DNA from: a virus
Virus record (IMG/VR): IMGVR_UViG_3300020185_000016
Length of the DNA: 64,000 nucleotides
Strand: one strand, 5' to 3'
This document shows, one piece after another, positions 10,029 to 63,300 of this stretch; the stretch's first letter is position 1, and every line of letters begins with the position of its first letter. Under the pieces are notes generated by a model. That model was given only the letters and a program-made list of their open reading frames with translations. It searched no databases and was not told the DNA's origin. A program made the translations under genes and the position numbers.

Positions 10029-10105
10029 TGGTACTCCCCGAGGGACTCGAACCCCCAACCTAAGCGTTATGAGCACTCAGCTCTAACCAATTGAGCTAGA
10101 GGAGT
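10029..10105 (-). tRNA. tRNA with CAU anticodon (probably Ile2; Met not excluded)
   Basis: Full cloverleaf, loop CT-CAT-AA, encoded CCA; C4-G69 and C5-G68 match TilS determinants. Confidence 0.9.
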
Positions 10106-10110
10106 ATATT

Positions 10111-10194
10111 TGGTGGGGGGTAATGGAATCGAACCATTCGTGAGTCACCTCGGCGGAGTTACAGTCCGCTGCCACACCTTGTAGCATACCCCCC
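10111..10194 (-). tRNA. tRNA-Tyr(GUA)
   Basis: GCGGA-CTGTAAC-TCCGC, long variable arm, CCA. Confidence 0.93.
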
Positions 10195-10275
10195 GATTAT
10201 ATAATTGGACCCTTATTCATTATCCGATTACCGGCAGTCTATATCAGGTCTCACCCGCTGGAGGGTGTAGTGTTT

Positions 10276-10303
10276 TGGTATGGGTGGTGTGATTCGACCC
10301 CAC
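10276..10303 (-). pseudogene. 3' tRNA remnant (T-arm, acceptor strand, CCA)
   Basis: GTGGG-GTCGAAT-CACAC-CACCCAT-A-CCA; no 5' half. Confidence 0.5.
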
Positions 10304-10313
10304 ATTATTCTTT

Positions 10314-10445
10314 TTAGCGATCTTTAATTTCATAAACTTCTTTATAGATATTACCAATATCTTTTGCCCCTTGATTATAACCAACAAGCCATCCAATTGC
10401 GCCGCCACAAATAACTAAACAACCAGCAATTAAAACCATTTCCAT
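10314..10445 (-). CDS. Small membrane protein (43 aa)
   Basis: Hand-translated MEMVLIAGCLVICGGAIGWLVGY... Confidence 0.55.
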   Translation of the reverse strand: MEMVLIAGCLVICGGAIGWLVGYNQGAKDIGNIYKEVYEIKDR

Positions 10446-10471
10446 AGTAAACCCCATTATATATTTTTAAT

Positions 10472-10546
10472 TGGCTCCCCAACTTGGATTCGAACCAAGG
10501 ACACACGGATTAACAGTCCGATGCTCTACCGCTGAGCTATTGGGGA
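10472..10546 (-). tRNA. tRNA-Asn(GUU)
   Basis: Cloverleaf, CT-GTT-AA, CCA. Confidence 0.95.
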
Positions 10547-10572
10547 ATATTATAATATTATATATCTTTTAA

Positions 10573-11193
10573 TTAAGATGATGTTTCGAGAGAATTGCCA
10601 TTTTTATCACATTCAGTAATAACTGGATTACAACGCATTTCAAAATAATTTTCTACAAAAGTCCAACCCAATGCTTCAATACCTTCTTGATAGTCTTCAT
10701 CGTACGTCGCTTCAATTTCGTCTATCATTTTATCAACATCTGAAAGCTTAGGTCCACTTGTTCTAATGTCCCAAATGTCTTCCCAAAAACAATCATCTAC
10801 ACAAATCATTTCGGCATCTGGATAGTCTTCAGTAATATCAACATATTCCTCATCTATAGATGGTACTAACATTTTATGCATAATTTGAAATGGGGCCATA
10901 TCCGGATCTACAATAATATTATTGGATTCATCAATAATATGAAACCCATGTTGATCAGCAACATCTTCAATATTATTATAATATTCAGATGCATTAATCC
11001 ATTCAGCAATTTCGGCATCAGTTTCCGGCACTTCAATTAACCACTCACCCCAACGCCATCCCATTTCTTTTGAAAGATAGGCCCATTTACCAATATCTTT
11101 TTCATCGTTAGTTAATTCGTTAAGCGGGCGTTTAAAAGTATAAATTTCAGTAATAGCTTTTTTATAAGAAGATTCTAATTTATAATATTTCAT
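10573..11193 (-). CDS. Acidic hypothetical protein
   Basis: 206-aa ORF with GGA RBS. Confidence 0.75.
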   Translation of the reverse strand: MKYYKLESSYKKAITEIYTFKRPLNELTNDEKDIGKWAYLSKEMGWRWGEWLIEVPETDAEIAEWINASEYYNNIEDVADQHGFHIIDESNNIIVDPDMAPFQIMHKMLVPSIDEEYVDITEDYPDAEMICVDDCFWEDIWDIRTSGPKLSDVDKMIDEIEATYDEDYQEGIEALGWTFVENYFEMRCNPVITECDKNGNSLETSS

Positions 11194-11218
11194 ACTGTTA
11201 ATCCTATAATTAATTTGG

Positions 11219-11292
11219 TGGAGCGGGTAAGGAGAATCGAACTCCTATCATCAGATTGGAAATCTGAGGTCTTACCATTACACAATACCCGC
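11219..11292 (-). tRNA. tRNA-Gly(UCC)
   Basis: TCAGA-TTTCCAA-TCTGA; ends T-CCA followed by a second CCA. Confidence 0.95.
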
Positions 11293-11339
11293 TTAATATT
11301 ATTCTTCCATCAACGATTTGAGTTTTTTAGCTTCTTGAG

Positions 11340-11430
11340 CTTGTTTTTCAATAGCTCTATTTACAATCCCAATATTCTACGAACAGCCACAGGATCATCG
11401 GTCATAATGCTGCCACCGTCATTCATCTGC
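11340..11430. repeat. 91-bp direct repeat, copy at 11340
   Basis: 89/91 identical to 11605..11695 by manual alignment. Confidence 0.9.
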
Positions 11431-11604
11431 TTCCCAATACCTACAATAAAAGTGTTTGCCACACGCATCAATCTCTGCTTGTGGATAACCTTGTTCCAAC
11501 AGCCAAGGAATAATACTCTCATCTTCGAGGAAGTCTGCTGGCAAGGGCTTAGGAAACCCATACTTCCATCCGCTGGGCGGATCACACATCAATAGTTTCG
11601 ACAT
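11419..11604 (-). CDS. Small hypothetical protein bounded by the 91-bp repeats
   Basis: MSKLLMCDPPSGWKYGFPKP; ATG abuts one repeat copy, stop lies inside the other. Confidence 0.7.
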   Translation of the reverse strand: MSKLLMCDPPSGWKYGFPKPLPADFLEDESIIPWLLEQGYPQAEIDACGKHFYCRYWEADE

Positions 11605-11695
11605 CTTGTTTTTCAATAGCTCTATTTACAATCCCAATATTCTACGAACAGCCACAGGATCATCAGTCATAATGCTGCCACCGTCATTCATATGC
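11605..11695. repeat. 91-bp direct repeat, copy at 11605
   Basis: Contains 3' end of gene 11626..11832. Confidence 0.9.
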
Positions 11696-11832
11696 TCTAC
11701 AATTTGTTCAAAATAAAAGCGAGCATCCGCATCTTCATCCAAAAGGCTAGCTGCAGTTCGAAAGAAGTTACGTAACTTCATATCACTTGTGCCATCATTG
11801 GCCGCCGCTTTATATGTTTTACCTCGTCTCAT
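11626..11832 (-). CDS. Hypothetical protein
   Basis: MRRGKTY...DDPVAVRRILGL; start uncertain (11832 or 11781). Confidence 0.6.
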   Translation of the reverse strand: MRRGKTYKAAANDGTSDMKLRNFFRTAASLLDEDADARFYFEQIVEHMNDGGSIMTDDPVAVRRILGL

Positions 11833-11834
11833 CT

Positions 11835-11963
11835 TTAATAAAGCATCCTCATACAAGTAAAGAAGCTGTTTTCTTCTAAACAGTCGCTCCAGATGTGTGT
11901 TGAGTACCATCCAATCAATACAAGACCAAGTGTAATTGCAATTCCATAAATTAACTTTTCCAT
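11835..11963 (-). CDS. Small membrane protein (42 aa)
   Basis: GAGG RBS; MEKLIYGIAITLGLVLIGWY... Confidence 0.6.
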   Translation of the reverse strand: MEKLIYGIAITLGLVLIGWYSTHIWSDCLEENSFFTCMRMLY

Positions 11964-11979
11964 TGTTATTTCCTCTTAT

Positions 11980-12063
11980 TGGTACCCGCGGCCGGACTCG
12001 AACCGGCACGCCTTACGGCCACAGATTTTAAGTCTGTTATGTCTACCATTCCATCACGCGGGC
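11980..12063 (-). tRNA. tRNA-Leu(UAA)
   Basis: ACAGA-CTTAAAA-TCTGT, long variable arm, CCA. Confidence 0.95.
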
Positions 12064-12069
12064 TAACTC

Positions 12070-12297
12070 TTATTTGTCCATCAATTCAGCTTTACGCTTT
12101 TCAACAGCTGCAAGTCGCTGTGCTTCTAATTCGATACCAGCTTCTTTATCACGACCCATAACCAGCAAAATGATTGCCGAAATAAGAGGCGAAATCAATA
12201 GTGCGACTACAAACCAAAGCCATCCATTTCGGCCCCAATTGTTAGCCCAATAGCCAACTAGTGCTGAAAACACTACTGCAATTAAAATAATATCCAT
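12070..12297 (-). CDS. Small two-TM membrane protein
   Basis: GRNGWLWFVVALLISPL motif. Confidence 0.75.
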   Translation of the reverse strand: MDIILIAVVFSALVGYWANNWGRNGWLWFVVALLISPLISAIILLVMGRDKEAGIELEAQRLAAVEKRKAELMDK

Positions 12298-12326
12298 TTA
12301 CTCTTCCTTAAACTTTTTTCGATGTT

Positions 12327-12386
12327 TGGAGTCAAGCCAGGGAATCGAACCCACTTACCCATTTTTATCTCTTACACAATACTTTA
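12327..12386 (-). pseudogene. Degenerate tRNA remnant
   Basis: GGG-TTCGATT-CCC..GCTTGAC-T-CCA; GTATTGTGTAA matches the tRNA-Gly D-arm start; no anticodon arm. Confidence 0.45.
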
Positions 12387-12465
12387 TGGTGATCTCTGTA
12401 GGACTCGAACCTACGACCTAGTGCTTAGAAGGCACTTGCTCTAAATCCTGCTGAGCTAAGAGACC
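12387..12465 (-). tRNA. tRNA-Arg(UCU)
   Basis: AGTGC-CTTCTAA-GCACT, CCA. Confidence 0.95.
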
Positions 12466-22957: not shown

Positions 22958-23215
22958 TTAAAAATCACTTTCCCCATGACCACCAGCGGTATTTTCTATT
23001 TCTACTGCAAATTCTTGATATCCACCAATGTGTTTATCATGCCAAAAAATTTGTGGTACAGTTTTTGCATTTGGTACTAATTTAAACATTTCATCTCTTT
23101 TGCCTGGTTCATTAATATCTATATAGTTATAATCAAGCTGCCATTCAGTTGCTAATCGCACAGCTCTTTTGCAATATACACAGCCTTCTTTTCCGTAAAT
23201 TTTTATTACACCCAT
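22958..23215 (-). CDS. Glutaredoxin
   Basis: CVYC, TVPQIF, IGGY. Confidence 0.95.
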   Translation of the reverse strand: MGVIKIYGKEGCVYCKRAVRLATEWQLDYNYIDINEPGKRDEMFKLVPNAKTVPQIFWHDKHIGGYQEFAVEIENTAGGHGESDF

Positions 23216-28345: not shown

Positions 28346-28771
28346 TTAATCCTTTTTTTCTTTTAATACATGTTTGCGATGGATTTTGCCACCCACAAAG
28401 GCATTATAGTATTCATCGGGCTTTAATAACACATCCCGCACCATTTGTTCTCTCATTTCATAATACGAGCATTCACCCTTTGATATACATAATCGCAGTA
28501 TTTCTCGTTTAAATCTATCTCTTCCCGAATTTTCAACAAGCAATTTAACTTCTTCACTTGAACCATAATAGTTTTGCCAATCAGATTGTGTTACTTTAAC
28601 ACGCTTTCTTTTATATCCTTTTAATGGCGCCAATCTTCGAGTAGACCATAGATTTTTTTTACCAACATATTTTTTATTATTTGTTAAATCAGTAATTAAA
28701 TATACAAACCCGACGAAAGGCTTTATTTCCTCTTCCGTCGGGTTATATTCAATATCATTATAAAACCACAT
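28346..28771 (-). CDS. GIY-YIG family protein (Seg-like N-terminus)
   Basis: GFVYLIT..NNKKYVGKK, YYGSS, YYN. Confidence 0.85.
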   Translation of the reverse strand: MWFYNDIEYNPTEEEIKPFVGFVYLITDLTNNKKYVGKKNLWSTRRLAPLKGYKRKRVKVTQSDWQNYYGSSEEVKLLVENSGRDRFKREILRLCISKGECSYYEMREQMVRDVLLKPDEYYNAFVGGKIHRKHVLKEKKD

Positions 28772-28824: not shown

Positions 28825-28977
28825 TTAATCTTCGGAGTCGTTTAGTTCATCAATCATTTCTGCTCGTATTTCGGTTCCACACATCGGGCAATGGTATGGA
28901 TCATCATCGATATCGGTTGATATTACTACTTGTGTTTCAGTTTCACAAACATCACAGTCTAAATAAAAATATTTCAT
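28825..28977 (-). CDS. Small Zn-ribbon protein (50 aa)
   Basis: Hand-translated CDVC...CPMCG. Confidence 0.75.
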   Translation of the reverse strand: MKYFYLDCDVCETETQVVISTDIDDDPYHCPMCGTEIRAEMIDELNDSED

Positions 28978-28978
28978 A

Positions 28979-30676
28979 TTAGGCCTCACATGCTGCGCAT
29001 TCAGTTGATATTACTCTTTTGCGGGTCAAAGATTGTGCTGCAGACATAGAAAAACTATAATATAAACTCTTAATACCCAATTCATGAGCATACAAATATA
29101 GCTGATTAATTTCCTTTACAGTCATATCTGGATCAAGCATTAGATTCAAGCTTTGACTTTGATCAATATATTCTTGACGGATTGCCGCTTGATCAATAAT
29201 AGTATTTGGACTAATTTCAGAAAATGTTTTAAATACTGCTTTTTCATCATCAGTTAAAATATCGAGATGCTGAACAGATCCATCTGCATTACGGATTGCT
29301 TCCCATACTTCGGGTTTATCTTCATCTTTTTCTTGCAATAATTTTTCAAGATATGGATTCTTAATTGTTACTTTCATTTTAGCCAAATCTTTAACATAGC
29401 AATTACTAAATTCTGGCTCTATAGATTGAGATACTTGACCCAAAATAAAACTTGATGATTTAGTTGGAGCAACAGCCATTGTAGTAGTATTGCGCATACC
29501 ATAGCCTTCAAGAAGTGGTGGTTCGCCTAAAACAATAGCCAATTCTTTTGAAGCTTCATAACTTCTTGTTCGCAATGTTTTTGCAATTTCAAGATTTAAT
29601 TTGGCCGCGGCTGTGCCCTCAAAAGCAATCATATTAGACTGTAAATATGAATGCCAGCCAAGAATACCAGCGCCTAGCGCCCGGTGATTTTTTGCAAATT
29701 CCCTCGCACGAAGCAAATATGTCTGGCCTTCGGTCTTGCGAATAAATTCCTCACAGACAGTATCAAGGAACATAGTTAATGTTTCAATAGCATCTGTTTC
29801 TTTAATCTCATCCCAATGTAAAAGATTAAGTGATGATAATACACAAGTAAACGTTTCTTCATGTGAAGATGGCAAGGCAATTTCAGCACACATATTAGAA
29901 GCATATACGCGCAGATCTTTATCTTTATAAACTTGGGGCCGGCCATCATTTACATTATCGCTAAATAAAATATATGGGAAGCCAATTTCAGCTCGACGCT
30001 GCAAAACTTTTGCCCATAATCTGCGCTTTTCTGCATCACCGGCTTTCATTTCGCGAATAAACGCATCACTTACCGTAATACCTGTTGTAAGCCCTTGGAT
30101 AGGATTACCTTCTGTACCAATGTCCAGAAACTCGTCAGCATCTGGGTGTTCAATGTCTTGGTATGCCGCAAAGAAACCACGGCGAACTGAACCTTGCGAT
30201 ACAACTGATGCCAAAGTATCATACATCTGCATAAAGTGTACCGAACCCGAGGATTCTCCCGAATCACGAATTGGAGCACCGCGATGACGAACGGCGCCAA
30301 AGTAACCCGACGTACCACCGCCGTTTTTCATTAGCATACCGTTTTCAGCATGACCAAATAAAATAGCTTCCATATTATCGTCAATATAAGAACCAAAACA
30401 AGAAACTGGTAAGCCCCGGTTTTTGCCATAATTTGCCCATACTGGCGATGCTAATGAATAATAGCCGCGGCTCATATAATCATAAAACTTATCAGCAAAA
30501 CCATCAAATTTTGATTGGTCTGATTTAGTCTTTGCCATATCTTTTAAATACCATTCTGCTTTATCCGCAATATTGCGAATACGGCTTTCTGGCTTTTCTT
30601 TTCCTTCTAAATAGCCACGTGACAAAAATGTTCGGGAATCTTCGTTTAACCAATAAAACTTTTTATATTTTTTCAT
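28979..30676 (-). CDS. nrdA: Class I ribonucleotide reductase alpha subunit, no ATP-cone
   Basis: SCF, GGTS, ASNMCAEI, TCVLSS, APT.SSS, KSLYY, C-terminal CAAC. Confidence 0.96.
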   Translation of the reverse strand: MKKYKKFYWLNEDSRTFLSRGYLEGKEKPESRIRNIADKAEWYLKDMAKTKSDQSKFDGFADKFYDYMSRGYYSLASPVWANYGKNRGLPVSCFGSYIDDNMEAILFGHAENGMLMKNGGGTSGYFGAVRHRGAPIRDSGESSGSVHFMQMYDTLASVVSQGSVRRGFFAAYQDIEHPDADEFLDIGTEGNPIQGLTTGITVSDAFIREMKAGDAEKRRLWAKVLQRRAEIGFPYILFSDNVNDGRPQVYKDKDLRVYASNMCAEIALPSSHEETFTCVLSSLNLLHWDEIKETDAIETLTMFLDTVCEEFIRKTEGQTYLLRAREFAKNHRALGAGILGWHSYLQSNMIAFEGTAAAKLNLEIAKTLRTRSYEASKELAIVLGEPPLLEGYGMRNTTTMAVAPTKSSSFILGQVSQSIEPEFSNCYVKDLAKMKVTIKNPYLEKLLQEKDEDKPEVWEAIRNADGSVQHLDILTDDEKAVFKTFSEISPNTIIDQAAIRQEYIDQSQSLNLMLDPDMTVKEINQLYLYAHELGIKSLYYSFSMSAAQSLTRKRVISTECAACEA

Positions 30677-30687
30677 TCTATAATTTC

Positions 30688-31971
30688 CTAAAATAAATCA
30701 TCGCAAGTAAACGCTTTTGTTTTCTTTGAATACGCGGTACTGCGCTTAACAAAAAAGTCTACATTTTTTGTACTCAAAATTTCTTCCATAAACCAGTCAG
30801 TAGTTTTGACTGCATCCATATCTACATCATATAATGGCTTCATATCAATTGCTTGGAGCGATTGATTAAACCGATATTTTAAAAATTCTTTTACTGTTTC
30901 TTTTGGCAAGAAATCTAAATCATATTCGCCATAAATCCAATCAACAATTGCAGATTCTGCTTTATATGCATCACGGCAAAGGCGATTAACTTCGCTAATA
31001 CTATCTTTATCAAACCAATCTGGATTTTCTGCCCGAATAATATTTACCAGTTCAAACCCAAATCGAGCATGAATATCTTCTTCTTTTGAAGTAGCTTCTA
31101 CTGCATTTGAAATACCCTTAAGCACATTTTTATGCTTGTTAAATGACATCATAATTAAAAACTGGCTAAACAAAGATACATTTTCAACAAACATTGAAAA
31201 TAGAATAATTTTATGAAAATAATCTTTATTATCAACAGGAGAACCAATTGATTGTTCGAGATACGCAATACGTTTTTTCATAGCAGGCACTTCAACAAGC
31301 TTTTCAAATTCTTCGTTAAGCCCCATTATTTCAATAAGATTTGAATAAGCATCGGCATGCCGCACTTCAGATTCGCCAAAAGTCATACCTACTGCAGACA
31401 CTTCTGGTTTTGGGAATCGATCACCGATTTTAGACCAAAATGTTTTAACCGCAACTTCAATTTGAGAAATGGCTAACATAGCCTTCTTAACAATTTCAAC
31501 CTCTTCGGGTTTCATATTAACTTTCATATCTTGAATATCAGATGAATAATTAAATTCAGTATGAACCCAATATGAATGACGAATAGCATCTGTGTATTCA
31601 TTAAGCTGAGGATATTCATACGGCTTTAGGTTTGTTCTTTTGCGAAAAATATCTGGTTGGTTATTAAAACGAAAACGAATATATTCACGGGCTAAATCAT
31701 GTAAGCCCATATCCATAATAACATTCTCTACAGTTGTATGAATATTATCAACCCCCACTTGAACATCAGCAGCATCATCCTCATTCAATAAATTTGTTAC
31801 ATCATTGGCTACTTCACCTGGGAGCAACCTGCTCCGCATTCCAACAGTTTTCATAGCTTTAGAAACCGCAAGACTAATTTTATTTTCGTCGTAGCTTTCA
31901 GTAGTGCCATCACGTTTAGTAACGTAATTAACTTTTCTTAAAAATTCTTGGGGAGTTGTTTGCAGCATCAT
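30688..31971 (-). CDS. nrdB: RNR beta subunit with N-terminal ATP-cone (class Id-like)
   Basis: VTKRDG cone; QIEVAVK, EVRHADAY, EEDIH. Confidence 0.93.
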   Translation of the reverse strand: MMLQTTPQEFLRKVNYVTKRDGTTESYDENKISLAVSKAMKTVGMRSRLLPGEVANDVTNLLNEDDAADVQVGVDNIHTTVENVIMDMGLHDLAREYIRFRFNNQPDIFRKRTNLKPYEYPQLNEYTDAIRHSYWVHTEFNYSSDIQDMKVNMKPEEVEIVKKAMLAISQIEVAVKTFWSKIGDRFPKPEVSAVGMTFGESEVRHADAYSNLIEIMGLNEEFEKLVEVPAMKKRIAYLEQSIGSPVDNKDYFHKIILFSMFVENVSLFSQFLIMMSFNKHKNVLKGISNAVEATSKEEDIHARFGFELVNIIRAENPDWFDKDSISEVNRLCRDAYKAESAIVDWIYGEYDLDFLPKETVKEFLKYRFNQSLQAIDMKPLYDVDMDAVKTTDWFMEEILSTKNVDFFVKRSTAYSKKTKAFTCDDLF

Positions 31972-32060: not shown

Positions 32061-32089
32061 ATTATATACTATTATATATCATAAGTAAA
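32061..32089 (-). promoter_or_regulatory. Early promoter of nrdBA
   Basis: TTTACT-N17-TATAAT. Confidence 0.75.
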
Positions 32090-32155: not shown

Positions 32156-32434
32156 TTATTTTTTCTCTAGTTCTAAAATTCTATTTTCGAGTTCGTCAAT
32201 TTTTTTAGTTACATGCGGATATTTTTTGCGCCAAGCATCGGTTGGTTGTTCAAACCAAGTAAACCCGTATCTATTAACTAAAAAATCTAAAAATTGATCT
32301 AGCTTAGCATAACACCATAGGCCAACTCGGGTGTCTTTAAAATATGCTAAAAATGCAGCACCTAAGATTGCCCCCAATATACTAGTATATATCCAAAGTG
32401 TATCGTTCATAAGATCTGATATTAAAGTTGACAT
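32156..32434 (-). CDS. Small membrane protein
   Basis: N-terminal TM segment, C-terminal coiled coil. Confidence 0.7.
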   Translation of the reverse strand: MSTLISDLMNDTLWIYTSILGAILGAAFLAYFKDTRVGLWCYAKLDQFLDFLVNRYGFTWFEQPTDAWRKKYPHVTKKIDELENRILELEKK

Positions 32435-32437
32435 TTA

Positions 32438-32833
32438 TTATTCTTCCAGTATTACAGCACTATCTAAAGCTTCTTCAGCCTTTTCATAGTAGTTTCTATA
32501 TGCCGCAATAATAGTTTTTTGTTGTTCAACTAACTTGCGTATTTCACTAAGATTTAATCCTAAATTACTATACCCATCACCGGTTAATGCATAAAGCGCA
32601 AAGGCTTGACCATCGTTACTTAGATCTTCGATAACCTGGTCAAGATTGTTTTCATTAATAACAATCCATTCAAGAGTTTTCATATTTAATTCATCAACTT
32701 CAGGTAAAGTCAATACGGGTTTATTAATCGGCTTCGACGATATCTGTATTTGCTGAGGTAGCGGTTTCGAGCAGGCCATCAGACTTGTAAGTATCATAAA
32801 GCCAAGGGCATTCCTTATTAAAAGCTTCGCCAT
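32438..32833 (-). CDS. Putative o-spanin lipoprotein
   Basis: Lipobox LMAC, Pro-rich, overlaps i-spanin candidate. Confidence 0.7.
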   Translation of the reverse strand: MAKLLIRNALGFMILTSLMACSKPLPQQIQISSKPINKPVLTLPEVDELNMKTLEWIVINENNLDQVIEDLSNDGQAFALYALTGDGYSNLGLNLSEIRKLVEQQKTIIAAYRNYYEKAEEALDSAVILEE

Positions 32834-33239
32834 TTACAGCGGTCCTTTCTTTTTCATTTAGTTCGGCACCCGATAACAATTCAAAACATCGACCGGCGTT
32901 ATATGAGCCACGATTAACCGCGCGCTCAATTCCAGCCGGATTATTAAGTGCAGCAACTGTTAAATCTATTCTTTCTAATTTATCAGCTAATAATTGGCTT
33001 TGTCTTCTTATTTTTGCATATTCGGCATTTATAGTGGTCAATTCTGCTTGTGCATCATTATAACTGTTTTGAAGAGACGCCATAGCATCTTCTTGAGTTT
33101 CTATAGCACTATTTAATTTAGCATTATTGGTTTCTAATATAATTATTGTTTGTTGCAATCTTAGGTATTCTTGGTATCCGAAATAGCCCGATACACCTAT
33201 TATAGCAAATAATGAAAGGAAAAGATACACTTTAATCAT
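32724..33239 (-). CDS. Putative i-spanin
   Basis: N-terminal TM followed by coiled coil; C-terminal Cys pair. Confidence 0.7.
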   Translation of the reverse strand: MIKVYLFLSLFAIIGVSGYFGYQEYLRLQQTIIILETNNAKLNSAIETQEDAMASLQNSYNDAQAELTTINAEYAKIRRQSQLLADKLERIDLTVAALNNPAGIERAVNRGSYNAGRCFELLSGAELNEKERTAVNGEAFNKECPWLYDTYKSDGLLETATSANTDIVEAD

Positions 33240-61935: not shown

Positions 61936-63300
61936 TTAAATTTTAAAATCTTTGAACCGATCAGCGGTATGTGTCTTATCAAAAGTTGGTGTGTCGTCAG
62001 TAAGTGTTTGTTCATTTTCATCAATATCAAATAATTTCATTTTTGATCTATCGACACCAATTACAAATCGTTTTTTATATGATGGATCATTATATCTATT
62101 CTTCAATTGTTTAACTGCAATTTGACCCATTGATTCAAGTTCTTCAGTAGAAAGCAAAGCAAACATTAGATCAGCAGTTGCAGGCAAACCAAAAGATTCG
62201 GATGTATCAGTTAAATCAATATCACTACTTCCATAACCGCTACGAGTTGTTTGTGTTGCAGAAACAACTGGAAGATTAAATTCCATTGCTAAGCCGCGAA
62301 GTTCTTCAGCAATTGATTTAATAAGTGTATATGAATTTATATTACCACCAGCTTTCATTCTAGCAGAAGCACAAATATTGAGATAATCAATATAGATAAT
62401 ATCCGGTATGAAAGACTTTTTAAGTTTCAATTCATTAAGTAGTGCTCTGAAGTGTGAAGCGTTTGCTTGACCTGTCGGATATTCCTTAATAATCAATTTA
62501 CCATTAGTGCGGCTAGATACTCGATGTACTCTTTCTGCAAACATTGATCTGGTCAGTGTTGGCAATTGATCCATCGGAAGATCTAACAAATTCGCATCAA
62601 TGCGCTCTGCTACACGCTCTTCTGCCATTTCCATAGTAAGATACAAAACATTTTTTCCGGCAGTAAGGTTTGCGGCGGCGCAGTGGCACATGAAAAGAGA
62701 TTTGCCCACACCAGTACCGGCCAAAATAATATTAAGAGTTTTATTTGGAAGACCGCCATTTGTAATTGCATTGAAATATGATAAATCGAATGGCAATTTT
62801 TCTTCATCCCGATGATAGAATTCATACCGTTCATCAACATTTTCAATATAGTCATGGCCAATATTCGTATCAAATGAAACACCGAGTGCTTTGCTAAGAA
62901 TATCCGGTAAAGCATTTTTAGTTAGTGTGTCATGTTTACCGTCAATAATACTAATAGATTCCATTACCGCAATAAACAATGCTCTATCTTGGCACCACTT
63001 TTCGGTAGTGTCATAAAGCCATTGCCCATCAACAGTTTCTTCACTAAACAATGAAGGCAAAATTTCTACTGCATGGCTATGTTGTTCTGCGTTAAATGAA
63101 GTGCTTTGATCAAGTTCAATTTTAAATGATTCGAGTGTTGGCAATTTATTATATTGCCCAACAAATTTACCTACTTCTTTAAATAATTGCTTATAGGTTC
63201 CTTCAAAATAATCTGGTTGAATAAATGGAAGAACTTTACGCATAAAGTCTTCATTCACAATAATATTTTTAATAATAAGTTGTTCAATATTAATAGTCAT
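61936..63300 (-). CDS. 41: Replicative DNA helicase (T4 gp41 / DnaB family)
   Basis: AGTGVGKS, MEMAE, KEYPT, IDYLNI, ATQTTR, SESFG.PATAD, KNRY. Confidence 0.97.
   Translation of the reverse strand: MTINIEQLIIKNIIVNEDFMRKVLPFIQPDYFEGTYKQLFKEVGKFVGQYNKLPTLESFKIELDQSTSFNAEQHSHAVEILPSLFSEETVDGQWLYDTTEKWCQDRALFIAVMESISIIDGKHDTLTKNALPDILSKALGVSFDTNIGHDYIENVDERYEFYHRDEEKLPFDLSYFNAITNGGLPNKTLNIILAGTGVGKSLFMCHCAAANLTAGKNVLYLTMEMAEERVAERIDANLLDLPMDQLPTLTRSMFAERVHRVSSRTNGKLIIKEYPTGQANASHFRALLNELKLKKSFIPDIIYIDYLNICASARMKAGGNINSYTLIKSIAEELRGLAMEFNLPVVSATQTTRSGYGSSDIDLTDTSESFGLPATADLMFALLSTEELESMGQIAVKQLKNRYNDPSYKKRFVIGVDRSKMKLFDIDENEQTLTDDTPTFDKTHTADRFKDFKI

Follow-up and report, generated by a model that had tools for sequence, protein, structure and literature searches.

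A class Id-type ribonucleotide reductase with the ATP-cone on its beta subunit in marine T4-like phages

A 64,000-nucleotide stretch of viral DNA (hereafter the window) carries two adjacent genes for an aerobic ribonucleotide reductase (RNR), and the question is which kind of enzyme they encode, whether it could be switched off by dATP and where the operon came from. A sequence-only reading of this DNA had proposed a class Id-like (Mn) enzyme with its ATP-cone on NrdB, unusual for a T4-like phage and acquired from Bacteroidetes. Our analysis makes it very probable that nrdB-nrdA is the only RNR of this phage, an early-expressed aerobic class Id (NrdAi/NrdBi) enzyme with a dATP-responsive cone on the beta subunit, while the origin of the operon appears to be a different one. 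The features that we refer to are the following:

30688..31971, minus strand: nrdB, 427 aa, ATP-cone::NrdBi radical-generating subunit (ORF with Pfam ATP-cone and Ribonuc_red_sm domains)
31669..31926, minus strand: ATP-cone domain of NrdB, residues 16-101 (Pfam PF03477)
30820..31638, minus strand: ferritin-like metal-binding core of NrdB, residues 112-384 (Ribonuc_red_sm, ligands and conserved residues)
28979..30676, minus strand: nrdA, 565 aa, cone-less NrdAi catalytic subunit (ORF with TIGR02510 and structure matches)
32061..32089, minus strand: promoter candidate, sigma-70-like (T4 early-type), TTTACT-17-TATAAT, ~90 bases upstream of nrdB
22958..23215, minus strand: glutaredoxin, 85 aa, CVYC motif, T4 NrdC-like (Pfam PF00462, E 3.5e-14)

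Operon layout and domain architecture

Both RNR genes lie on the minus strand with the boundaries of the sequence-only reading, and nrdA starts 11 bases downstream of nrdB. The cone profile PF03477 matches NrdB with an E value of 7e-13 (49 bits against a cutoff of 25.8) over positions 2-83 of its 88, followed by Ribonuc_red_sm with an E value of 8e-57. NrdA carries only the RNR all-alpha and barrel domains and gave no PF03477 match, so that the proposal of a cone on NrdB, made from the motif VTKRDG (residues 17-22), and of none on NrdA was borne out. No second ATP-cone, separate cone protein or second RNR subunit was found anywhere in the 64,000-nt window. A pseudogene or an annotation artefact can be dismissed, since the two ORFs are uninterrupted and lack none of the catalytic residues. 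The promoter candidate agrees with the consensus at 10 of 12 positions and is a consensus match only, the number of such sites in the region being not above that in shuffled sequence. The glutaredoxin of the window shares 53-62% identity with that of two relatives, G002 and G004, each of which has only one.

Subclass and proposed chemistry of the enzyme

NrdA is a short alpha subunit of the NrdAi group. It scores 767 bits with the NCBIfam model TIGR02510 ("NrdE-prime"), against a cutoff of 602, and among solved chains it matches the cone-less class Id-type alpha chains 6DQX (E 1e-205) and 6DQW (E 1e-177), with the next chain at 1e-47. The residues expected of a catalytic subunit are all found: C93, N261/C263/E265, C278, Y539/Y540 and a C-terminal C560-x-x-C563 pair, the cysteine positions having been located by script.

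In NrdB, the first-sphere ligands read E-E-H-E-E-H (E172, E202, H205, E263, E298 and H301), with Glu and not Asp as the first ligand, and S201 and E297 occupy the second sphere. The phage protein thus matches the NrdBi signature given in Table 4 of Harrison et al. 2019 (ligands E-E-H-E-E-H, second-sphere C/S and D/E), and its residues also agree with those that the eLife 2018 paper (PMC5794259) names for Leeuwenhoekiella blandensis. The motifs QIEVAVK and HADAY were located by script at residues 170-176 and 205-209, which places Glu as first ligand (E172), a Lys at +4 (K176) and a Tyr at the radical-site position (Y209), just as the sequence-only reading had it. The distorted-helix motif ISQIEVAVKTFW, which holds K176 and W179, is identical to the E170/K174/W177 stretch of L. 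blandensis. All ligands, S201, E297, K176, W179 and Y209 are invariant in both alignments (A1 and A2), as are W135 and the C-terminal Y414, the positions of the radical-transfer path.

The best solved matches of NrdB are all class Id beta chains (5OLK, 1e-136; 6SF4, 1e-129; 8DQ3, 1e-107; 6CWO, 1e-90), and class Id beta matches as a whole span 1e-137 to 1e-84. The alignment with L. blandensis NrdB (5OLK) includes the cone, which upholds the likeness to that enzyme seen from the sequence. An AlphaFold2 model of NrdB with a mean pLDDT of 84.8 fits 5OLK along 394 columns (TM-score by target, 0.82) and the Mn-loaded structure 6SF5 (TM-score, 0.96; rmsd, 1.4 A). A fold search with this model returned class Id structures at ranks 1-19, with 5OLK, 6SF5, 8DQ3 and 6CWO among the matches. 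The presence of a cone-on-beta class Id-type RNR at this locus is therefore confirmed far beyond chance.

The closest characterized system is the NrdAi/NrdBi enzyme of L. blandensis (5OLK, 6SF4, and 6SF5; PMC5794259; JBIC 2019, PMC6754362), which shares with the phage the N-terminal cone on NrdB, the cone-less NrdA, the nrdB-nrdA gene order, the ligand set and the helix motif, with the NrdB core 58% identical. It differs in that the phage NrdA is ~35 residues shorter at the N terminus and in that L. blandensis has a class II enzyme in addition, whereas the complete relatives of the phage are without a second RNR. The class Id beta subunits of Flavobacterium johnsoniae and Aggregatibacter actinomycetemcomitans (6CWO-6CWQ and 8DQ3-8DQ5) likewise begin their ligand set with Glu, carry the Lys at +4 and retain the Tyr, and they match the phage NrdB at 1e-84 to 1e-107, but they align only from phage residue 104 on and have no N-terminal region of cone length.

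A conventional diferric-tyrosyl (class Ia-like) RNR with its radical on Y209 would fit the Tyr at the canonical radical position, but we regard this as scarcely credible, given that the first ligand is Glu instead of Asp, that K176 and the helix motif are the same as in L. blandensis and that chains outside class Id match NrdB only at 7e-22 (Francisella beta, 9DWS) or weaker, those of class Ic (Chlamydia) at 1e-9 or weaker and, 9DWS aside, the rest weaker still. Both subunits have their best solved matches in class Id, and NrdB clusters in the tree with L. blandensis-type sequences. In the characterized class Id enzyme, the Tyr is no radical carrier (eLife 2018, PMC5794259).

Homology to the enzymes of F. 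johnsoniae, L. blandensis and F. ignava lets one expect the class Id enzyme of the phage to work as follows, and it is on this homology that the identity of the metal as Mn, the oxidant and the dATP response rest. NrdB would assemble a dimanganese cofactor that is then oxidized to Mn(III)/Mn(IV), and the cofactor itself, not a tyrosyl radical, would initiate the transfer of the radical to C263 of NrdA, by way of W135 and Y414 in beta and Y539/Y540 in alpha. The NDP would be reduced by C93 and C278, which the C-terminal pair C560/C563 would re-reduce, this pair in turn being probably reduced by the CVYC glutaredoxin of the phage. As NrdA has no cone, overall sensing of ATP and dATP would be absent there and would be taken over by the N-terminal cone of NrdB, with ATP favoring an active alpha2beta2 complex and dATP pairing the cones and so driving beta2 into an inactive beta4. 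Such a cone-on-beta mechanism has been published for enzymes from two phyla (among others, eLife 2018, PMC5794259).

The ATP-cone and its response to dATP

In the model, the cone has the expected beta-hairpin and four helices (pLDDT, 77-94) and aligns to the cone of 5OLK. The texts consulted on cone-on-beta enzymes gave no listing of the residues that hold the two dATP molecules, and the residues of the cone were therefore judged by conservation only. Across 69 cone-bearing NrdBi sequences, that of L. blandensis included, K19, K31, A35, E82, A94, Y97, I98 and R101 never vary, and R20, I32, A39, V81 and M86 reach a conservation of 90% or more. The dN/dS of the cone, ~0.1-0.2 (a weak estimate, since dS is saturated at >1 in every pair), indicates that the domain is under purifying selection.

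Overall identity to the L. blandensis cone is 27%. At or beside the cone-cone interface, M80, I92 and E76 of L. blandensis are kept as M86, I98 and E82 (the "Asp76" of the eLife 2018 paper, PMC5794259, is Glu in the L. blandensis sequence), whereas D73, D77, K89 and I93 are changed to T79, N83, R95 and R99. Across the phage clade, D73 to T/K, K89 to R, Q72 to H and D77 to N are fixed; I93 is R in the window. D73 and K89 are among the positions named for the L. blandensis cone-cone interface or an internal salt bridge (eLife 2018, PMC5794259), and Q72 and D77 adjoin the named positions. A predicted complex of two cone copies (residues 1-108, alignment A2) reached a score of 0.27 against a mark of 0.42, a value that speaks neither for nor against binding.

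Since the clade has fixed residues of its own at or beside the L. blandensis contact and salt-bridge positions, the cone may have been re-tuned and the dATP-driven beta4 state may differ or be absent. The enzyme would then be the same, but its cone would be no dATP off-switch of the published kind: ATP activation might be kept with dATP shut-off lost or weakened, or the changed contacts might lead to another inhibited oligomer. The low identity to the L. blandensis cone and one clade member, L069, that has lost the cone altogether also point this way. The RNR of phage T4 is not known to be inhibited by dATP, which means that an off-switch need not be retained by lytic phages. We nevertheless consider such a re-tuning unlikely, though not to the degree of a class Ia-like enzyme, as none of the invariant cone residues has been lost (the N-terminal K-R pair among them), purifying selection acts on the cone and the F. 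ignava cone, also very dissimilar to that of L. blandensis, still forms a dATP-induced beta4. The reading that we favor is therefore a cone that does respond to dATP.

Spread and origin of the operon

The gp41-type helicase in the window is closest to Kyanoviridae and complete relatives of the phage carry gp23, in agreement with the earlier assignment to the T4-like phages. The nrdB-nrdA operon is kept in ~70 IMG/VR loci, and the ~70 IMG/VR contigs fall with >120 metagenome protein clusters into a single clade of marine T4-like phages; the exact NrdB protein of the window was found on 114 contigs. In the complete gp23-bearing relatives there is one RNR large subunit, one glutaredoxin and no NrdD, and the cone-bearing class Id enzyme is thus the standard and sole RNR in the complete relatives of this clade. 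The nearest record, G001, is a 22.8-kb fragment without nrdB.

Contrary to what was first supposed, such an enzyme is not unusual for a T4-like phage. Besides the IMG/VR loci, 72 GenBank phage records hold an ATP-cone::NrdBi, each covering at least 80% of the query. Subclass Id RNRs had previously been reported as abundant in ocean viruses, and viruses were already among the carriers of cone::NrdBi described by Rozman Grinberg et al. (eLife 2018, PMC5794259). The arrangement is absent only in the closest cultured relatives: phage C48C1, the closest of them, has a cone-less NrdB that is 23% identical to ours, and no NrdB match was found in HTVC008M, the phage that also gave the sole megablast match (124 bases) of 24 kb of the window to GenBank phages. 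The same fused ATP-cone::NrdBi is found in cultured phages of a different virus family, the Staphylococcus Herelleviridae phages (Romulus, Remus, SA11 and others), and in Sporosarcina phage Lietuvens. As their NrdB is 47-49% identical to that of our phage and groups with Bacillota in the NrdB tree, they represent a separate lineage and a separate acquisition. T4 and the cyanomyophages resemble the present phage in having an aerobic class I RNR in a T4-like genome and an NrdC-like CVYC glutaredoxin. Phage T4 bears the ATP-cone on alpha and has an additional NrdD/NrdG, whereas NrdD is missing from the complete relatives studied here.

As for the origin, a recent capture of the operon from a Bacteroidetes (Flavobacteriia) host or co-resident would be in line with Flavobacteriia being the most numerous cellular carriers. 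The cellular sequences nearest to the phage proteins (L083, L085 and L086; ~55% identity) carry Bacteroidetes or Balneolaceae labels, and the NrdB tree unites them with the phage clade at an SH-aLRT support of 99, albeit in a quick search and on long branches; in the NrdA tree, however, the same link has a support of only 25. Against a capture, the phage sequences are monophyletic (support of 99) in both trees, where they form a deep branch of their own outside Flavobacteriia, with a length of 0.67 in the NrdB tree and deep divergence among members that share as little as 64% identity. Flavobacteriia fall into a clade of their own, with Thiotrichales as its sister group in the NrdA tree, and forcing phages and Bacteroidota together costs 28.6 lnL (AU test, p = 0.026). 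A permuted tmRNA of alphaproteobacterial type, also present in the phage, is a hint of a host outside Bacteroidetes. A recent Bacteroidetes capture is thus quite improbable, more so than a re-tuned cone. The RNR phylogeny lends no support to the suggested acquisition from Bacteroidetes. To judge by the trees, the phage operon belongs to an old, independent lineage and hardly resembles a gene pair captured from Flavobacteriia in recent times.

The enzyme type, the cone-on-beta switch and its occurrence in viruses had all been published in 2018, and as a discovery there is little new in them. What this locus adds is that a cone-bearing class Id enzyme is the sole RNR in a very common clade of marine T4-like phages and that this clade is an old, separate lineage rather than a recent-looking Flavobacteriia capture. 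With a cone that differs at published contact residues, the phage enzyme lends itself reasonably well to a test of whether dATP feedback is kept in a lytic phage. If the cone has indeed been re-tuned, one of the most common phage groups of the ocean would carry a natural variant of the beta-borne switch, and a lost or weakened dATP shut-off would suit a lytic phage.

Subclass and active-site residues of the RNR

The two ribonucleotide reductase (RNR) genes form an operon, and a consensus match to a promoter lies upstream of it:

30688-31971, minus strand: nrdB, 427-aa ORF
28979-30676, minus strand: nrdA, 565-aa ORF, 11 bases downstream of nrdB
32089-32061: sigma-70-like hexamer pair TTTACT-17-TATAAT, ~90 bases upstream of nrdB, consensus match only

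The candidate hexamer pair fits a T4 early-type promoter. Pfam places an ATP-cone at NrdB residues 16-101 (E 7e-13) and the RNR small-chain domain at residues 112-384 (E 8e-57), while NrdA has large-chain domains only and scores above the NCBIfam TIGR02510 "NrdE-prime" cutoff (767 bits versus 602). No further ATP-cone or RNR subunit was found within the window. The sequence-only reading had proposed a class Id-like enzyme with the cone on the beta subunit and none on NrdA, and this was borne out, as were the positions of the motifs it quoted (VTKRDG at 17, QIEVAVK at 170, and HADAY at 205).

In a search of solved structures, the top NrdB matches were all class Id: Leeuwenhoekiella blandensis NrdB with its cone (5OLK, E 1e-136), its cone-less core (6SF4, E 1e-129), Aggregatibacter actinomycetemcomitans (8DQ3, E 1e-107), and Flavobacterium johnsoniae (6CWO-6CWQ, E 1e-84 to 1e-90). 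The Francisella beta chain 9DWS followed at E 7e-22, with class Ic (Chlamydia) chains and the remainder at 1e-9 or weaker. NrdA matched 6DQX (E 1e-205) and 6DQW (E 1e-177), the next chain being at 1e-47. An AlphaFold2 model of NrdB, built from a 69-row alignment (mean pLDDT 84.8, cone blocks 77-94), superposed on 5OLK over 394 columns and on the Mn-loaded structure 6SF5 with a TM-score of 0.96 and an rmsd of 1.4 Å.

By homology, the six metal ligands of NrdB are E172, E202, H205, E263, E298, and H301, with S201 and E297 in the second sphere, a set identical to the NrdBi row in Table 4 of Harrison et al. 2019 (ligands E E H E E H; second sphere C/S, D/E). The L. blandensis counterparts of K176, W179, and Y209 are K174, W177, and Y207; T294 is numbered alike in the two proteins, and their helix motif ISQIEVAVKTFW is identical. 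All of these are invariant across alignments of 19 and 69 relatives. The tyrosine described earlier as the radical site is correct as a position (Y209) but not as a radical carrier. W135 and Y414, also invariant, are the equivalents of Trp133 in L. blandensis and Tyr356 in Escherichia coli, both of which have been named as radical-transfer residues. NrdA carries C93, N261/C263/E265, C278, Y539/Y540, and a C-terminal C560-x-x-C563. The class Id assignment is sound.

Distribution and origin of the enzyme

The sequence-only reading had called an enzyme of this kind unusual for a T4-like phage and suggestive of acquisition from Bacteroidetes. Rozman Grinberg et al. 2018 had already counted 93 RefSeq NrdBi proteins with N-terminal cones, "encoded by viruses and bacteria." We found 72 GenBank phage records with at least 80% coverage of NrdB; the 40 listed comprise Staphylococcus or Mammaliicoccus Herelleviridae (~47% identity) and Sporosarcina phage Lietuvens. 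IMG/VR yielded at least 80 loci, ∼70 of which fall into a single clade at 64-88% identity, all with a cone and an adjacent nrdA apart from the cone-less L069. The best 120 clusters in a large protein collection (78-99% identity, contigs up to 223 kb) all have both Pfam domains, and an identical NrdB is encoded by 114 contigs of up to 203 kb. Five long relatives (four 91-100% complete at 183-221 kb, and one record of 318 kb, 85% complete) each encode T4 gp23, exactly one RNR large subunit, and one glutaredoxin; NrdD was not found in any of the five. The closest cultured relatives lack the enzyme: C48C1 has a cone-less NrdB with 23% identity to that of the window, and HTVC008M gave no match. According to a 2026 preprint, in which cones were trimmed before analysis, subclass Id viruses always outnumbered the non-cyanophage viruses of subclass Ia in the ocean samples surveyed.

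The 80 cone-bearing cellular relatives in GTDB most similar to the query (50-55% identity) come from Flavobacteriia, Thiotrichales, several Patescibacteria phyla, Bacillota, and others. The single 82% match, a species-representative MAG ("Rhodobacteraceae bacterium Water_Bin34," FZLS01000020.1), has nine genes for the T4 gp23 major capsid protein, spread over different contigs, and so consists mostly of binned T4-like phage contigs; its taxonomic label is unsuitable for inferring a host. In the NrdB tree (74 rows, LG+C20, quick search), the marine phages form one group (SH-aLRT 99) on a branch of 0.67, Flavobacteriia form a separate group (99), and Staphylococcus-type phage sequences group with Bacillota. 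Constraining the phages together with all Bacteroidota cost 28.6 lnL units (AU p = 0.026). The NrdA tree likewise recovers the phage clade as monophyletic (99), with another viral contig as sister, and pairs Flavobacteriia with Thiotrichales; in neither tree does the phage clade nest in Flavobacteriia. Three cellular MAG loci labeled Bacteroidetes (L083 and L085) and Balneolaceae (L086) group with the phage clade on the basis of NrdB but not of NrdA; their neighboring genes look cellular, and their NrdA proteins are nearly identical (branch lengths 0.007-0.013). These trees are unrooted, come from quick searches, and represent bacteria by the 80 sequences closest to the query; they speak against a recent origin in Flavobacteriia without identifying a donor. 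The window enzyme is of a known type, and neither its rarity nor a Bacteroidetes origin is supported.

In L085, the second gene upstream of nrdB encodes a Cu/Zn superoxide dismutase, which is curious since the class Id cofactor is, according to published work, assembled with superoxide.

Neighboring genes and phage genome

The operon is flanked on the minus strand by the following:

28346-28771, minus strand: SegE-like GIY-YIG homing endonuclease (PF19835, E 2e-36), just 3' of nrdA
28825-28977, minus strand: ~50-aa ORF with a CxxC...CxxC zinc ribbon, starting 2 bases past the nrdA stop
32156-33239, minus strand: three ORFs directly upstream of nrdB

The endonuclease, preceded by the T4 late-promoter consensus TATAAATA, occupies this site in only 5 of the related loci and so is a mobile insertion beside the RNR genes. 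The zinc-ribbon ORF has a weak homologue there in one related locus only (L052). Of the upstream ORFs, one (92 aa) is a membrane ORF, another (131 aa) bears a lipobox-like LMAC signal, and the third (171 aa), which overlaps the second, combines an N-terminal membrane anchor with a coiled coil. The 131-aa and 171-aa ORFs resemble an overlapping spanin pair; they gave no significant Pfam match, and relatives do not conserve them at this site.

The window nrdA is intact, unlike that of four related loci (L037, 7278-10295; L038; L079; L056), where the break falls precisely at the catalytic Cys. There, an N-terminal fragment ending ...SNM is followed by an intein N-part (CLRGDS...), a free-standing 282-aa ORF (no Pfam match), and a short intein C-part (...ILVHN) leading into CIEIALP. 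The layout suggests a split intein into which an endonuclease gene has been inserted, similar to the "fractured genes" of marine metagenomes.

Elsewhere the window encodes:

61936-63300: gp41-type helicase, closest to phage C48C1 and cyanomyophages (Kyanoviridae), 60-66% identity
58144-58519, minus strand: permuted (two-piece) tmRNA of alphaproteobacterial type (Rfam)
22958-23215: glutaredoxin with a CVYC motif, matching the single glutaredoxin of the relatives
10029-12465, minus strand: six-tRNA cluster (Met, Tyr, Asn, Gly, Leu, Arg)

The tmRNA (alpha_tmRNA 72 bits, tmRNA_permuted 103 bits; ARAGORN tag ANNNFAPSGYALAA) points tentatively to a host that is alphaproteobacterial or comparably streamlined. 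Permuted tmRNAs are known from Melnitz-like phages and pelagimyophages (PMC9004378).

The diverged ATP-cone

Identity to L. blandensis is 27% in the cone versus 58% in the core. Within the marine phage clade, mean pairwise identity is 0.64 for the cone versus 0.84 for the core, and dN/dS is ~0.1-0.2 versus ~0.03, rough values since dS is saturated. The cone therefore evolves faster than the core, yet is still constrained. In a comparison of 69 NrdBi with cones, L. blandensis among them, K19, K31, A35, E82, A94, Y97, I98, and R101 never vary, and R20, I32, A39, V81, and M86 show conservation of at least 90%. A cone-less NrdB (322 aa; L069, 5998-6966, with 6 kb of upstream sequence available) lies inside the marine phage clade, which indicates secondary loss of the cone there.

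In L. blandensis, the cone-cone contact was reported to involve M80, I92, I93, D73, "D76," and K89, with an internal D73-R95 salt bridge (eLife 2018, PMC5794259); position 76 of that sequence is a Glu, with D77 next to it. At these positions, the window has M86, I98, R99, T79, E82, N83, R95, and R101, and the clade-wide replacements are D73 to T/K, D77 to N, K89 to R, and Q72 to H. Judging from these residues, the conserved cone residues are kept and the tetramer interface is kept only in part. A dATP off-switch is the likeliest reading for the window enzyme, since the dissimilar cone of F. ignava nonetheless gives the dATP-induced inactive NrdB tetramer.
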